Source: Vermamoeba vermiformis (lineage: Eukaryota). Taken from it: a DNA stretch of 64,000 nt. Of this stretch, positions 1,743 to 30,151 are shown piece by piece. The translations under genes were made by a program, and so were the position numbers. The stretch is from positions 186,001 through 250,000 of the forward strand of contig JBEWZL010000048.1 in the NCBI GenBank assembly GCA_045837725.1, read 5' to 3'. Within the stretch, counting starts at the first letter, position 1, and every line of letters begins with the position of its first letter. Under the pieces are notes generated by a model. It was not told the DNA's origin, made no database searches, and saw nothing but the letters and a program-made list of their open reading frames with translations.

Positions 1743-3376
1743 TTAAGAGAGGCTGAAGTAACTGCTGGTGTTCAGACCATCAATATGGTGATCATCTTGC
1801 GAGTCATTCACAAACACGCCGTCCAAGTCAAATCCAGTCTCAAAGTCCAATTCGTCGTGCGTTGTGTCGTGTTCTGTTTGAGGTTCAGCGGCTGGTGCTG
1901 GTTCAGGTTGCGGCATCACAGGTGTCACATTCACTTGCGGTGGCTGATGATGGCCATTGGTGGGTGTTGCAGTGTAACTCGTGTTGGTTTTGAGTTTGAT
2001 AGACGGATAAGTCGATGGTGCAGCAGGCATGGGATAGTTGTTGTCGTACACTGGCTTGGGCGGATAGTTCGACACAGGCAAGTTGACTGGATTGAACTTG
2101 GTTTCATTCAGCACCGGTGTCGTGTTGGCCATGATATTCGTGTTGCTCACTGGTCCTGACGCGTACACTGGCATCTTGCCGCGACGTGGCTCAGTGGCGA
2201 CAGGTGTGTGACTGACACTCGGCACAGGATGGCTGTTGACAGGTGTCATCTGATGAGGTCGCTTGCCAGCTGTTGCATTGGTAGTGCTGGGCACGGCAGG
2301 CACAGCAGGAACAGTCGGGATGAGCGGTGTAGCACCAGGGGGCAGTTGAGCGTTGGGCTGTGGCAGCAGAAATACACCTGGCGGCAGGATTGGTGGCAGT
2401 GTCTGTTCTGGCGGGGCCATGCGCGTCAATTCTTGCACGAGAATGGAACTGTTAATCTTCTCATCGTTGAGACTCTTAATGTGATGCAGCAAGAAAGTCG
2501 AGTGTTGCTTGACCTGATTGAAATCTATGCCCTGGTGATACAGCTGTCAGTTGGACACGTGTCACAAAGAGGTCTGCACAATTACGTACAAATTTGTTCA
2601 GCGGACCAGTGAGTGACAGACGAGGCTCGACAACAAGTGCGTCCAACATGTTCTGCACGAGCATGCATTTGCTGAAGTCACGTGATTAGTCACTGACACG
2701 CGTCAGATACTTGTAATGGGACTTACTCAAACAAGGCGCGGAAGAGCGGTTGATACTCGGGCACGGGGTCAATCAGCAAGTACCACGCAGCATCAGTGCG
2801 AACATATATCTTCGGCACCGTACCATCTTCTGCGGCACCAAACTCGACACTCCACAACACCAGATCTCCGCTGCGCAGCGACAGATGTGAATCTGGATGT
2901 TGTCGGATAGCTGCCATACGAGCTTCAGGCGTATTGAGTGGCTCGACTATATCATACAGCTCGGGGGTAATGAGTTCTCCGGTCAATACGAGTGGATTAA
3001 TGACCACTGGATAGCGCTGTAGATCTTCGATCGAGGCAACGGGAGTGTTGGGCATGTTTGGCGCGAAGATGTTGAAGCCCACAATATAACGATAGCAATA
3101 GAGCGAGGGGTCCACACCTAGGGGCCAGTCATTGTACTTGGCAGGCACTTGCGCTTCGGGCGTGACCGTTGAGGAATGTGAGGGCAGTTTGGGTGGGATC
3201 ACGCGTGGAGTTTGACGAGGACCAGCCTTCTTAGCACGTGTATTAATGCCTGATTTTTGCGGAATATTCGGCGCTGGTTCAGGGCCTGGTTGACGCAGTT
3301 GTTGGCGCAGCATCTTGATCTCGCGTTGCAGCTTAGAGATCTGATCTTTGACTCCTGCTTGGGCATTGGGGTCCAT
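1743..3376 (-). CDS. RFTS (DNMT1 replication-foci-targeting-like) domain protein with a Pro-rich tail and no methyltransferase domain (3 exons)
   Basis: WSVEFG...KIYVRTDAAWYLLIDPVPEYQPLF...KCMLVQNMLDAL...PRLSL resembles the RFTS consensus (WxIEFG...IRTDxAWYxLxxPxxxYxPxF). Confidence 0.6.
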
Positions 3377-3815
3377 GGCTGTTGTAATTATTTGATATGT
3401 TTTGATATATTCCTAAAAACAAACAATTTTAATATGTGTACAAAGTACTTGTGAGTGGTTTTTAGCCGGTAGATTGAGTGTCGAAGAGACAACAATCGAG
3501 AGAGTTTGAAACTTCGTAAAATAGACTTATTTATATTATAGATATTTTTGAACATTTAATAGTCCATTTAGAAATAAATACAGCCTGTAATAAGTGAATT
3601 TAATTTGGCGGTAAAAATGTTAATCGAGCTAATTCAAGCTTCAATAATTACATATAATATTATATTAACATTTTTTATACATACCAATAATAATGTGTTA
3701 TTTAGCAAATATTTAATTAATTAAGTGTATTTGATCAGCTGGTGAGATTGACACACGAGAGTGAGAGGCTGACAGAGCTGAGAGATATATAATAGAGCAA
3801 AACAACTGTTATTTC

Positions 3816-6800
3816 ATGAACAGCGTGCTCGTGTGTGACTCTTCAGTCGGGTATAATGTTTCAAATTTGAAGTTTACGATAATTTTGACGACGATTTTAT
3901 CAATTTTATTATCAACCTAAAAAATGGCTGTATTGCTCAGACATACCGCAGATTTCAGAAACACCCTTAGACTACTTTACCCACATTTGTTTTTTGTACA
4001 ATTGTCATTGTGCACGCTAGAGTTGAGGAGCCAAATAGTCAGGATACATTGAAGATGGAGAGCGAGAGCGACACATCTAGTGTGTCTGATAGCGGCTCTG
4101 AGAGTTACAATCAAATACCACCACCACCACCGCTACACCTTGAGGACGATAGTACCGTCGATATTGATGACCCTGAAGCAAATCTCCAACAGCAATTGCA
4201 ACTAGCTGCGGACAAAGAGAAATTAACAGCTATATTAAATCATGTATATGATATTGCTAAAATAGAAGATGATTCATGGGTGCTCGAAGATACTCAAGTT
4301 GCGGATTTGACGTGGAACGATATTAAAGAGGGGCGGGTCAAGCCTTCAGTAAACACTGGTCGTCGATGGAACCGCATAAGAACATCTTACGTGAGTGCAT
4401 TATAATATAGCTCGCTAACAGTCTTTATATCAATTTATCTGAATTTTTTCTATTTTTGAAATTGAATTCTACTGACCCAGACCCAATGCAGCCCATTGAA
4501 CACACGAGTACCGTCAAAGTAGTGCTAGAAAAATATAAAACCTCGGCCCGAAGGGTAAGCAATGCCCGACCAATATAAAAAAATTTGCAACTGCCGATCT
4601 ATTTTCAGTTGTATTAAACCATCTTGTATATTCAAGGGACTCAGCGAAGAGCAGCGCAAGAAACGATTAGCCTTATTTGGTGAGAATACAGACATGTCGG
4701 GCACTCTCTACAAGTGGACTAAGCCGCACGGATCCATCAAGCAACAAGTGCACGACAAACTCGAGGCCTATTGGGTGCTCATAGACGGCGAGTGGTTGAA
4801 GAGACCGAGGTACATACTGTCTCCTATTTAGTCGTATATACAGCTCCTGAGTGCTAATATTTTGTTAGCTTGTCGTTGGTACCAGGCGACATTGTGCTGG
4901 TGAGCGAAGGACAAGTCGTGCCTGCAGATCTGCGCATCATTCGAGCGTGGTCGTGTTGGCTCGAGAACGGACATGCCACTTGGACTACTGCGCGCTGGGC
5001 CTCGACTTCTAATGACGGCAACACGAACTGGCTCAACTCGCCGAACATGGGCTATCAAAAGATGTGGGTCAACAGTCGGGGCTATTTGATCGGCGTCGTG
5101 ATTGCTACTGGCGAGACGACTGTCGCCAACACGCAGTATTATTATCACTACCCTGTCAAGGTGTGTAACTTGCTGTCTTCAACTCGTCATCCTAAAATTT
5201 CCTTTTTTAGTACGCAGTGGATCCAGAGGCCAAGATGTTCCTAAAGCTAGCGGGAGGCATGAATATATATATGAGAGATCTCTTGAGCTTGACGAGACTG
5301 CGGGGCTTGCAATATTTGTTCATGAACTTTGACATTTTATTGCACCACAAAAAATCCAATGTCGGTATGTATTAGCAACACTATTAGCACAATTTTACAA
5401 ACTGATTTGTATTACTGCCAGCATCTGTATTCTATAACAATAAGATCTATCAGCCTGAAGAGATTGATGCCGCAGATCTGAGTTTCATTCAATTGCATCG
5501 CGTTGCTTCGTTGGTCAATTCAGCGCATATTCACGGTACGCATCTTATTAAAGGTGTGATTATTCTAATTATTACCAAATTAGGCAATAAAGCCATCGGA
5601 ACTAACGGTTTCGATCGAGTAATCGCACTATTTTTAGAACGTTATGGCTCAGTTTCCAAAGTAAGGCCGAATATTGTAATACTGTATTCAATTGCAATTG
5701 TTAACCCCTTTTAATGAAGTGACGCAAGACGCACGAACGATATTCAGATGCTTCATCGCACGCGTTTGGTGTGTATTTAGAGGAGGGCGAGGACAAGAAT
5801 GAGAACGGCACTTCCAACGAGAACAACAACAGCAATAACAACAACAACAACAATAATAACAACAATAATCTGGTTGCCATAGCACCGTCCATTCGTTTGA
5901 GAAAGAAGAAAGCACCCAACACTGTGAATGTGGAAGGTAAATTCGGAGCACGCATCACCGTGCAAATGGACGATGCGTACACCATCATCAGCGATCAAAC
6001 TGTGCAGTACTGGATCAACAATGGCGTTATCGAAGAGCTCGATAATGGCACTCGTCAGTTCGTGCAAGATATGATCAAAGTGCTCGCTGAGCGCAAGTAC
6101 ATTATGATTGGCTACTCGATCAGATTGACCGAGCTCAGTCGCAATGTGTTTGTGGGATTCATTGCCCTGGACGTCCCTTTCAAGCCCCCAGCAGTGAAGC
6201 AGAGCATTGAACTGATGCGCGACATTGGCTACAAACAGGTCTACTTCTGTCGCTACAACTTGTACTCCATCAGGGCATTCATGGAAGCGCTGTCATTCGA
6301 GTGCGTCAAATACGATCCGTCTGACTCGGAGCACTGGCCACTCATTGGCCCTGGTCGAGCACCCGTGGTGAATGACTGGGATCAATTTGGCATGCCCATG
6401 TGGGATGGGAACAACAACAACAACAACAACGAGGACCAGCCTCCTGACGGTGATCCTCCGCGTCCACCGACCGACGAGAGCAAGAGCGAGGAGGTGAAGA
6501 AGATGTTGGCGAGCAAAGTGGTGCTGTTCGACGGAGATCTCGAATACAACCAGGCCAACAAACTGTTCTCGTCGAGTATTCTGTGCACGACCATCAATCA
6601 GCGCAATTTTCATCACCTCACCACGTCATTCACCACACTCAACACACTGGTAAGTTAGTCCATTAACAAGCACAATGCAGCTCTAATACCTCACTAGCGC
6701 CGACCATTCATCACCATTGGCTGCAATCTCGCTGACAGTCACATCCTGTCCGCATCCGCGTGCAAAATGTTCTTCTCGCGCATGTTGGGCCTGTGCTATT

Positions 6801-7001
6801 ACTACGCAACATCAGAGCTGGTGTGCATCAGTCAACGCGTGAGTGATCTAGCTCGATTTATGGAAGAGTGTAAGTGCATTGAACTGCTGCAAAAGATCTT
6901 TATTAATCACGGTGCTTTCCTTTTCAGTGAAAAAGAAGGACCAATATTTGCAGACTCATCCCAATGCAGTCGCGTACCGAGACAACTGCACCATCAGCTA
7001 G
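3816..7001 (+). CDS. P-type ATPase-derived soluble protein (N-terminal, A-, N- and P-domain remnants) with no TM helices and a C-terminal CaaX (CTIS); start uncertain (3816 or 4055)
   Basis: GLSEEQRKKRLALFGEN, LVPGDIVLVSEGQVVPADLRII, GVVIATGETT, FVGFIALDVP...VKQSIELMRDIG, ITIGCNLADSHIL; multiple GT-AG introns; stop TAG at 6999-7001. Confidence 0.7.
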
Positions 7002-7068: not shown

Positions 7069-8188
7069 TCACTCTTCGTACAGCCACTTGTCGATGCACC
7101 GCACAATCAGCAGTTCGTGACGCATCATCTGCGCACCGAGCGATTGTTCACCGCGCAGATAGTGCAGTATCGCCGCACAGTCCTCAGCACTCAACTCATC
7201 CAACAGTGCGCGTGTCGTGTGGTACAGTGTCGACTCTGAGGCTGCGAATGAAAAGCAGTTAGCATGATCCGTACACGTGCCGAGTGAGCCTTTGAGCTGT
7301 CCAAAGTACTGCAGCACCACGCGGTAGTTGTAGTGCGCATCAGTGACGTTCTGCTGCTTCAACCAGGCCAAGCTCGGTGCGGTGAGTTCAAACACTGAGC
7401 GCGCAGTCTTCCAGCCTGAGATGCACGACACTTGCGTCAGCAGCAACTGGAGCACGAGCACTGGATCTGAGCGGTGTTAGTATCAGTGCCGCGGTGCTGA
7501 GGGGTGCTTACAGTTGGTGTTGTACCAGTTCTTGATACGGTCAACAATGTCGCGCCACGGAGCAACGAGCGCTCGAATTTCTTGTAGATCTGTCGCGGTG
7601 GTCAACTGCGCGCAATTAGAATTGTACATAGTGAGCATCAGGCTGCTATAGTTACTTGATAATACGGCGAAGATGCTTCGAACAACATCTTCTTCAACTT
7701 GATCAGCACGCCAAGCCAGTACCGCGCCTTTTCAACGGTGAAAGTCGGCGTTAAGTATTCTACGGAAGTGCTCTTAAAGAACTTCATCATCGAGTTGAGC
7801 AGCGTGCTATTGATATTAATGTTGCTGATTTTGATGCACTCGACGATCGTATCATTGATGGGCATGAATACTGACTCGACGAGTTCTAATTGCAGGTACA
7901 AATAGCGCGCCACGGCGTGATTTGAGATTAATGTGGTCGTATTAGTAGGTTTGGCAGTGGCAAAGGCATTGAGTTGTTTGAATAAGCTACTCTCGCGCAG
8001 CCAATAGGTAGCGATTGGATTCACCAAGCCGTTGATTAACGGTTCAATTTCCCTAGTTTCATGATTAATATATAAATAAGCAGTCCGATCGATGTACGAT
8101 TATAAATAAATGGTGAATTACTGCAGTGGTTCAGTGTGGTTGCTTACACGATGAAATTATTGCGGTCTTTATTGTCATACGCATTCAT
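7069..8188 (-). CDS. Hypothetical helical protein (4 exons)
   Basis: ORFs 7638-8027 and 7069-7461 plus short exons join in frame through GT-AG introns; likely start MNAYDNKDRNNF. Confidence 0.55.
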
Positions 8189-28515: not shown

Positions 28516-30151
28516 TTATTTTACATGATGTCGCTTGTGATGTTCGTCCTTTTTATGGTAGGGATGGGGCTCGTGATTCTGTTCGAGATATTCCGTGGTT
28601 TGCATCTCATGCAGCCGCGACAGAGTGCGACTGAATGCAAAGATCTCTTCCTCGCCCGTGATTGGTCCCCCCGAGGCAGTGGCGGGCAGCGAGGTCGGGA
28701 AGAGCAGTTCGGGCACACTGTGCGCGGCGAGAATGAGCTTCACTTTGTGGTCGTAGCACTCGTCGATCAGCAGAATGAAGCGCCGTGCCTCGTTCAGTGA
28801 ACTGTCGGGACTCATGCGCGGCACATTGACGATGAACAGCGTGTGATACACCTCGCACAGCTTGGCGTAGTCTGCCACACCGAGAGCAGCGCGGTTGTCG
28901 CACAGCTCTGCAAAGTCGAACCACGCGATGCCCTTGAGTGCGCGCTGGACTCGCAGCACGCGTCCGTAGCCAATCGGCACCTCGCTCACCTCACCTGCGC
29001 GCTGTTCGGTCAGCTGATTCCACTGCTCTTCCAGGGCACGCGTGGTGGCACTGGGATCTTGCGCGCTGATCACGTGATAGATGTGCTTCATGCGCTGTCC
29101 GACCAGTCTGTAGTCCACGTGCGAGGTCATGTGGTGCACGTGACAGCGCTGTTTCAGCTGCGCGATGAAGGGCAAGAACAGGGCACGCTGCAGTCCACCC
29201 TTGTACAGATCTGAGGGGCACGTGACTGGTCAGCACGAGGTGACACGTGTCAAATGCAGGCACTTACCGTCAGGCGGTCTGTTCGAGGTCGCAACAACGA
29301 TCACGTGCCGCTGCCAGAGCTTGTCAAACAGTCTGCCGAGCAGCATGGCATCGGCTATGTTGGTGACTTGGAACTCGTCGAAGCAGAGCAGCTGTGTCTG
29401 TGCACGTATCTGCTGCACCACGTAGTCGAGCGGATCTGCTTTGACCACTGCCTGCTGCGTGCGGTACTGGTGGATCTGCTGGTGCACGGACTGCATGAAC
29501 GAGTTGAAGTGCACGCGCGTCTTGCTGACTTGGTGCACGTGCTGCATGAAGAGGTCCATCAGCATCGTCTTGCCGCAGCCCACGCCACCCCATATGTACA
29601 GCCCGCGCGGTGCACTCACCTCCGCGGCGACTGGATCCGGTGTCACGAGTGCTGGGGTGAGGAATGTGTTAGTGCGTAGTGCTGGAGCTTGGACGTGGTT
29701 GTAATTGCCTTTTATGGCAAGAACAAAACAGCATTGCCAAAAATGGGAATGACTTACATTTGACACGTGCCCACCAGCCACTGCTCGGCTCCTGCTCCTC
29801 GGGCTGCGTGTTGACTTGTTGTACATAGCGATGTATATCATCAGCTAGTCCTTGCAGTAGTTGCAGTGTGTAAAGCTGCGCGGGATCCAGTCGGTACTCG
29901 CCGCGTTGGATCAGCTCTTGGTACGCACGAATGATGGGTCCGTCTTGTGATATTCGAGTACTCTCGTGCTTGTTGTGGTGATGTGTATGTGTAGCACATG
30001 TACGGTATGTGATGCGAAACAGTTGGGGACGCTGTGTTGTAGATGTGTTGCGTGGTCTGTATTTCAATTTTAATGCCGGATCTGATCTTCCAGTTGACTT
30101 CCTAGTCGCGCGCAGCAACATGGGGCATATGATTAGGGATATTCGATTCAT
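28516..30151 (-). CDS. AFG1: AFG1/LACE1/ZapE-family mitochondrial ATPase
   Basis: GLYIWGGVGCGKTMLMDLF, RVHFNSFM, LCFDEFQVTNIADAM, ATSNRPP, EARRFILLID, FAFSRTLSRLHEM. Confidence 0.93.

Follow-up and report, generated by a model that had tools for sequence, protein, structure and literature searches.

A candidate lipid-tethered, non-catalytic descendant of the P-type ATPase headpiece in Vermamoeba vermiformis

P-type ATPases are defined by the coupling of a cytoplasmic headpiece to a membrane domain. Membrane-free proteins related to the P domain of that headpiece exist among the soluble HAD-family phosphatases, including the archaeal "soluble P-type ATPase"; these are enzymes that keep the catalytic aspartate (DxDxT) and have neither an A domain nor a CaaX box. 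Nearest in concept to a pump part with a lipid anchor are the plant HIPPs, which, as far as the available text of the source goes, combine a soluble HMA domain, also present in P-type ATPases, with a C-terminal CaaX isoprenylation motif (PMC12294528). Here we describe a gene that brings a putative pump-type headpiece and a CaaX box together in a different way. It lies on a 64,000-nucleotide stretch of Vermamoeba vermiformis DNA (contig JBEWZL010000048.1 of assembly GCA_045837725.1, forward strand, positions 186,001 to 250,000), referred to below as the window, in whose coordinates all positions are given.

The gene comprises 10 exons on the + strand (coding sequence 4055-7001; Table 1), and its product of 791 aa, obtained from the frame listing by scripted splicing, ends in AYRDNCTIS followed by TAG. 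We are confident that this protein is pump-derived, without a membrane part or catalytic motifs, expressed and constrained, and that it carries a conserved CaaX box. Our favoured interpretation, held with moderate confidence, is that the locus encodes a lineage-restricted descendant of type II/III P-type ATPases of ~790 aa, a putative farnesyl-tethered, non-catalytic headpiece that would act by binding. When compared with type II P-type ATPases (Na,K/H,K-ATPase alpha, PMR1/SPCA and SERCA; PF00690 + PF00122 + PF00702/PF13246 + PF00689), the N-terminal segment and the A domain are homologous and the KGAPE-DPPR-TGD stretch of the N and P domains is weakly but collinearly alike, whereas the transmembrane (TM) helices, Cation_ATPase_C and the motifs TGES, DKTGT, TGD and GDGxND are missing. 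In addition, the window protein has a 112-aa N-terminal region, insertions rich in Asn or in Pro and acidic residues, and the C-terminal CaaX box. It differs from the soluble HAD phosphatases in having lost the aspartate motif. The HIPPs differ from it in that they contain HMA, a small domain of P1B pumps that binds metal, and not the A/P/N engine, are restricted to vascular plants and are not homologous. Like pseudokinases and pseudophosphatases, it combines a presumably conserved fold with replaced catalytic residues and purifying selection.

Descent from P-type ATPases was traced through the N-terminal motif and the A (actuator) domain. The Pfam family PF00122 (E1-E2_ATPase) matched exon 4 with an E-value of 6.5e-7 (29.5 bits against a cut-off of 28.1) and also matched the orthologue P0001 above the cut-off (E 1.1e-7), while PF00690 (Cation_ATPase_N) gave weak matches below the cut-off (E 0.1 for the window, 0.0044 for P0001). 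In the PDB, phmmer matched the A domain of Na,K/H,K-ATPase alpha at residues 133-230 with an E-value of 1.7e-4, and the alignment set TGES against TWTT. Protein searches covered databases of 5.8 and 1.84 billion proteins, and from the larger of these the A-domain region retrieved real ATPases with a best E-value of 1.6e-4. Eighteen of the 36 real type II ATPases returned, taken from the top of the list, formed our comparison set. Aligned to them with hhalign, the family matched over residues 118-344 at Prob 97.9 and E 3.6e-13, and M1-M2 fell into a long gap. A hidden Markov model (HMM) of the same 18 sequences (59 bits) placed window residues 115-151 on model positions 10-45 and residues 180-275 on positions 124-221, leaving 29 residues between the N-terminal motif and the A domain, compared with 79 model positions in real ATPases. 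The language-model neighbours of the orthologue P0004 (0.91-0.94) were all P-type ATPase clusters among those listed; the 30 listed contained 11 distinct P-type ATPase cluster sets and no non-ATPase set. NCBIfam models matched the A domain only (IIA2, 1.7e-7; IIIA, 2.3e-6; IIC, 3.8e-6; IID, 1e-5), at 13-29 bits against cut-offs of 62-975. On these alignments the N-terminal motif and the A domain are solidly homologous to P-type ATPases. The significant matches (phmmer against the PDB and the ATPase HMM) likewise bear out the pairing of TGES with TWTT that had been proposed in the initial annotation of this DNA.

The membrane part of the pump was sought in the protein, in the surrounding DNA and in transcripts. 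The maximum Kyte-Doolittle hydropathy over 19 residues was 1.19 in the window protein and 1.30 in P0004, below the usual transmembrane threshold of 1.6, so that no segment reaches transmembrane hydropathy; the most hydrophobic spans are strands of the A and P domains. Exon 3, which is contiguous, encodes both the N-terminal motif and the beginning of the A domain. A tblastn search of the 64-kb window with two real ATPases (P0007 and P0034) matched exons 3-4 only and gave no match to the ATPase C-terminus. Together with the gap at M1-M2 and the absence of extra exons from transcripts, the hydropathy values confirm the earlier description of the product as membrane-less.

The catalytic motifs are missing as well. 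DKTG, TGE[SN], [MVI]TGD and D.TGT occur in none of the three full-length family sequences and in all 18 real ATPases, and GDG..D in none of the three and in 17 of the 18. The place of TGES is taken by TWTT in all three family sequences. With TGES, DKTGT, TGD and GDGxND all missing, we conclude that the protein is unable to go through the P-type cycle. The catalytic loss asserted in the initial annotation is therefore upheld, including the replacement of TGES by TWTT, but the two further replacements that it named, NFDIL for DKTGT and GCNLAD for GDGxND, found no support (see below). Where the A domain ends, ATGETT (5104-5115) contains a TGET that is kept in all three orthologues; it occupies a structural position other than the TGES loop.

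Relatives of the protein are few. Both databases together yielded one cluster of full-length forms, namely P0001 (675 aa), P0004 (798 aa, 6 contigs) and P0005 (500 aa), and two fragment representatives, P0002 and P0003 (the latter with P0006), which are exon-8 open reading frames (ORFs) read into an intron. The entire gene of the P0006 lineage was found on a single metagenome contig, L001. No relative was detected among IMG/VR viral contigs (0 confirmed of 170 pattern matches) or in prokaryote genomes (0 of 97). The architecture is the same in orthologues from three or more further lineages, and L001 agrees with the window in all ten exons and in the positions of all nine introns. Identity to the window protein is 79.8% over 787 aligned residues for P0004, 76.8% over 737 for L001 and 68-72% over 213-214 for P0002.

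Comparison of the window with L001 over 739 aligned codons by the Nei-Gojobori method gave nonsynonymous and synonymous proportions of pN 0.132 and pS 0.655, and corrected values of dN 0.145 and dS 1.55, the latter saturated. The resulting dN/dS of 0.093, a check called for in the initial annotation, is far from 1 and indicates that the family is under strong purifying selection. The uncorrected pN/pS was 0.20 (bootstrap 95% interval 0.17-0.24), and when the gene was divided into five segments the upper limit of pN/pS was below 0.43 in each. Residues in the aligned or conjectured former catalytic places (TWTT, NFDIL, CRY and GCxxAD) are conserved among orthologues. A pseudogene decaying across the family was considered and rejected on the grounds of these ratios and of the open frames in P0004 and L001.

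Expression was assessed in X5, a public RNA-type run whose contigs match the window at 99.8% identity, with 3 differences in ~1,980 transcript bases. Introns 3-9, seven of the nine, are removed exactly in the X5 contigs, and none of these joints is present in the DNA run X1. The contigs join exons 3-4, 4-5-6-7-8 and 8-9-10 without an extra exon; contig 11 covers exons 5-6-7 and reaches into exon 8, and the contig over exons 8-9-10 (depth 8.2 at the last-exon splice) remains collinear with the genome for 48 nt beyond the stop. No RNA contig in X5 covers introns 1 and 2, which fit the P0004 protein and the L001 exons instead. The last splice was also found in raw RNA reads of the runs X22 (2 reads) and X24 (3 reads). 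These reads are 90-99% identical to the window (5978-6965) with fixed differences at every listed site, indicating that they derive from a relative. Transcripts, the evidence on which the initial annotation had staked its gene model, therefore contain no unrecognised transmembrane exon and do use the last exon encoding CTIS (X5, X22 and X24), although its limits, given earlier as 6929-7001, had to be corrected to 6928-7001 from the X5 joint.

Several observations weigh against the interpretation that we favour. The evidence for expression is thin, made up of contigs of depth 4-8 from a single run and a handful of reads from a relative. The parent ATPase subfamily is not singled out by the NCBIfam scores, which spread over IIA2, IIIA, IIC and IID. 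Pfam, NCBIfam and HMMER searches of the PDB match nothing in the C-terminal 500 aa, and in profile comparisons the regions 296-420 (containing NFDIL) and 655-798 (containing GCNLAD) score within the range of shuffled columns: 15.7 and 16.9 against whole ATPases (shuffles up to 22.7 and 22.9, respectively), and 14.3 and 9.6 against the collinear template segments only (shuffles up to 24.3 and 21.5). Lastly, the window allele carries an in-frame TGA if its splicing follows that of its relatives, and use of the alternative acceptor AG at 5727-5728 is seen in no read.

This TGA, which is absent from the initial annotation, occupies 5720-5722 and would open exon 8 if splicing takes place at the orthologous acceptor AG, 5718-5719 (window sequence AAG/TGA CGC AAG/ACG, with slashes after the two candidate acceptors). 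The window allele would be intact only by way of the AG 9 nt downstream; otherwise it would be null or hypomorphic. The second of these outcomes, a recent null or hypomorphic allele in this genome in which the orthologous acceptor is used and UGA opens exon 8, is a substantial possibility, if somewhat short of probable. What would remain is a fragment of ~400 aa (the N-terminal region and the A domain, followed by a short tail) or a degraded mRNA, with the family functional in relatives, so that it is compatible with our interpretation of the family as a whole. It draws on the finding that the DNA contig of X1 (depth ~420) likewise reads TGA, with no variant contig, and on the TGG (Trp) found at the same codon in three relatives: the 99.8%-identical X5, whose transcript uses AG 5718-5719, joining 5660 to 5720, and reads TGG; L001; and P0004 (W). 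The exon 8 of relatives begins with WRK (TAG/TGG CGC AAG in L001; SKWRKTHERY in P0004). Both candidate acceptors are moreover AAG, and the upstream one comes first. Yet the AG 9 nt downstream is in frame and the remaining ORF is undamaged, and with just 3 differences from X5 in ~1,980 bases any decay must be very recent. The stop itself may be permissive, as UGA followed by C is a leaky context.

The CaaX box is present in all three known C-termini, as CTIS in the window and in P0004 and as CSIS in L001, so that the orthologues that the initial annotation proposed to search for do retain it. Farnesyl-type boxes have Cys at -4, an aliphatic residue at a2 and S, M, A, Q or C as X, and by this rule CTIS and CSIS fit a farnesyltransferase-type signal. 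It is conceivable, though unlikely, that the tail is not prenylated, the protein being soluble or nuclear and its terminus conserved for another reason. A conserved basic patch, RKKKAP, would suit such a protein, and because the last exon as a whole is conserved in L001 (22 of 23 residues identical), the conservation of the last four residues is unspecific in that comparison. In P0004, however, the three residues just before NCTIS differ while the box is kept, and the combination of Cys at -4, Ile at -2 and terminal Ser fits the farnesyltransferase pattern in all three orthologues.

Beyond the A domain, the sole ATPase-like stretch identified by profile comparison is encoded at 6020-6247 (NNGVIE..DVPFKPP..). 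It reads NNGVIEELD...KYIMIGY...FVGFIALDVPFKPPAVKQS..LGYKQ.Y and was aligned to KGAPE...LRVLA...GLVGMIDPPR...AGI..VMI of ATPases, running up to TGD. This KGAPE-DPPR-TGD match had an hhalign E-value of 0.0023-0.0027, with 0 of 130 column shuffles reaching its score, and as a sub-region an E-value of 0.0012 (0 of 127 shuffles). It lies in the collinear place and is followed by CRY (6248-6256), opposite TGD in hhalign. When residues 296-798 were considered alone, their nearest language-model neighbours were HAD-hydrolase / P-type ATPase N-domain clusters (0.91), which we treat as a lead only. From the match and these neighbours we infer that the C-terminal 500 residues may be a much-diverged P/N (HAD-type and nucleotide-binding) headpiece. 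Resemblances to Na,K-ATPase may also exist in its N domain and around the M5 stalk. The blank HMMER-based searches (Pfam, NCBIfam and PDB) beyond the A domain and the two non-significant regions would fit another origin, in which only the N-terminal segment and the A domain come from a P-type ATPase and the 500 residues that follow are unrelated, having been joined to them by exon shuffling. We consider this improbable: the one significant C-terminal match, which none of the 127-130 shuffles reaches, lies in the collinear position, and residues 296-798 have HAD and N-domain neighbours. The pairings of DKTGT with NFDIL and of GDGxND with GCNLAD, having scores within the shuffle range, are nevertheless positional conjectures. 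NFDIL did fall opposite DKTGT in the second alignment of a low-stringency, near-global hhalign comparison (Prob 7.7), which was not counted, and phmmer searches of the PDB with exons 9 and 5 gave only bromodomain and polyubiquitin matches, judged to be noise.

Returning to the TGA codon, the difference between TGA and TGG could in principle reflect adenosine-to-inosine (A-to-I) editing of the window's own transcript instead of a strain difference, given that the change is A to G and was seen in an RNA-type run. Editing that removes stop codons is known in filamentous ascomycetes, where, according to the available text of the source, U is preferred at -1 (PMC11156358). Here the -1 base is G, X5 departs from the window at two more sites, 6451 (T>C) and 6480 (G>A), and so represents another genotype, and Trp is encoded in the L001 DNA and the P0004 protein, making editing an unlikely source of the difference, and indeed a very improbable one. 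Least credible of all is a gene-model artefact, that is, a normal pump whose membrane exons were missed: introns 1 and 2 do lack RNA support, but M1-M2 would have to fall inside the contiguous exon 3, RNA shows the joints of exons 4-5 and 8-9-10, with the contig passing the stop codon, P0007 and P0034 have no further match in the window, and a conserved convergent gene lies ~70-90 nt past the stop in both the window and L001.

The gene model is detailed in Table 1. All nine introns are GT-AG and each is 48-101 nt long. Every peptide quoted in the initial annotation was located by script in the spliced product (GLSEEQRKKRLALFGEN, VLIDGEW, LVPGDIV..VPADLRII, GVVIATGETT, NIYMRDLLSLTRLRGLQYLFMNFDILL, ITIGCNLADSHIL and AYRDNCTIS before the stop). 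The start given there, 3816, was not retained: the DNA from 3816 to 4054 has stop codons in every frame, and ATG 4055 is aligned with the start codons of P0004 and L001. This upstream DNA, which has no similarity to that of L001, is probably the 5' untranslated region (UTR); X5 transcript depth first appears in the bin 4011-4121. The region encoded by exon 1 has no Pfam or PDB match, and its pN/pS against L001 is 0.15. Exon 8 includes two Asn-rich (AAC/AAT) coding tracts, at 5815-5872 and 6401-6441, which differ in length and sequence among orthologues and were skipped as repeats in read mapping.

Table 1. Features of the locus and its immediate surroundings, in window coordinates
Feature	Position	Strand	Description
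Upstream neighbour	2723-3412	-	Divergently transcribed
Upstream stretch	3816-4054	+	35-codon uORF-like frame at 3816-3920
Exon 1	4055-4390	+	112 codons; acidic/Ser-rich start, then conserved N-terminal region
Exon 2	4492-4554	+	21 codons; junctions agree with P0004 and L001
Exon 3	4637-4809	+	Cation_ATPase_N-like motif GLSEEQRKKRLALFGEN (4637-4687), then A-domain start, without M1-M2
Exon 4	4869-5160	+	A (actuator) domain core; TWTT (4978-4989) in the place of TGES
Exon 5	5211-5364	+	Directly after the A domain, without M3-M4; contains NFDIL (5325-5339)
Exon 6	5422-5535	+	Conserved in L001
Exon 7	5584-5660	+	
Alternative acceptor AG	5727-5728	+	9 nt downstream of the orthologous acceptor; frame kept, WRK lost
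Exon 8	5729-6649	+	307 codons; start assumes the AG 5727-5728 acceptor
Exon 9	6698-6869	+	Contains GCNLAD (6719-6736)
Exon 10	6928-7001	+	LKKKDQYLQTHPNAVAYRDN, then CaaX box CTIS (6987-6998), stop TAG 6999-7001
X5 splice joints	5158 to 5209, 5363 to 5421, 5534 to 5583, 6648 to 6697, 6869 to 6928		Intron 3 joint also seen
Convergent gene	7069-8099	-	Multi-exon; ~70-90 nt past the stop

The convergent gene matches no Pfam family and is syntenic in L001 (3123-4118), with 51-71% identity per exon. The upstream neighbour encodes a DNMT1-RFD domain (E 7e-6), and other genes of the window are ordinary housekeeping genes (XRN, SNF2, RFC, MON1/FUZ longin, NOP9, Tam41 and MutS); for the RFC4-like neighbour, human chains score higher than yeast chains. 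An apparent in-frame stop in an AFG1-like ATPase gene (29210-29266, minus strand) proved to lie in a GTAAGT...CAG intron with a length that is a multiple of three, and consequently gives no sign of stop-codon recoding. Among the sequencing runs, X1, the best DNA match to the window, contains two contig variants at 6287-6370 (depth 315 versus 146; 6319 G>A and 6340 A>C), and hence two haplotypes at roughly 2:1 in the sample, with no variant at the TGA site. Diverged lineages seem to be filed under the species label that X22 and X24 share with X1. The sampled words also occur, to 9-43%, in runs X6-X20, whose labels name other organisms or sediment, aquifer and water metagenomes; we infer nothing from this about habitat or host.

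In summary, a few related microbial eukaryotes retain and express a pump relative that is without membrane segments or catalytic motifs and has gained a conserved lipid-anchor signal, which suggests that the cytoplasmic part of the pump has taken on a new, non-pumping role. By definition the product is not a P-type ATPase, as five defining features are missing; it descends from these pumps and may still move like their headpiece. In the mechanism that we propose, the cysteine of the CaaX box would be farnesylated, as its motif implies, and the protein would be held on the cytosolic face of a membrane, tethered approximately where helix M5 would have entered the bilayer. With neither an aspartyl-phosphate nor ion pumping, it would serve as a non-catalytic binding module, acting as a regulator or scaffold, or possibly as a nucleotide-dependent switch.

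The initial annotation had named no described family of this kind, and literature on membrane-less, soluble, pseudoenzyme or prenylated P-type ATPases, at the level of titles and abstracts and with subscription journals mostly outside, likewise gave nothing pertinent; within that scope no pseudoenzyme derived from a P-type pump headpiece was found. We therefore raise, as a tentative idea only, that this may be the first known case in which the P-type engine, with its A, P and N domains, has been released from the membrane domain, retethered by a farnesyl group where M5 began and employed as a non-catalytic conformational module in trans. Such a module could, for instance, dock on a membrane protein such as a canonical pump, or could couple nucleotide occupancy to movement of the A domain.

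Looking ahead, the very narrow distribution of the family makes its general importance uncertain. A headpiece-only descendant kept by selection would show that this part of the pump can have a function without transport or phosphoenzyme chemistry, and, if the tentative idea above is true, pseudoenzymes derived from pumps would form a class of their own, new to science. Nature would also have supplied, in soluble and lipid-tethered form, a module that is difficult to isolate for study. Should the protein bind real pumps or nucleotides, it would point to an unrecognised layer of pump regulation.

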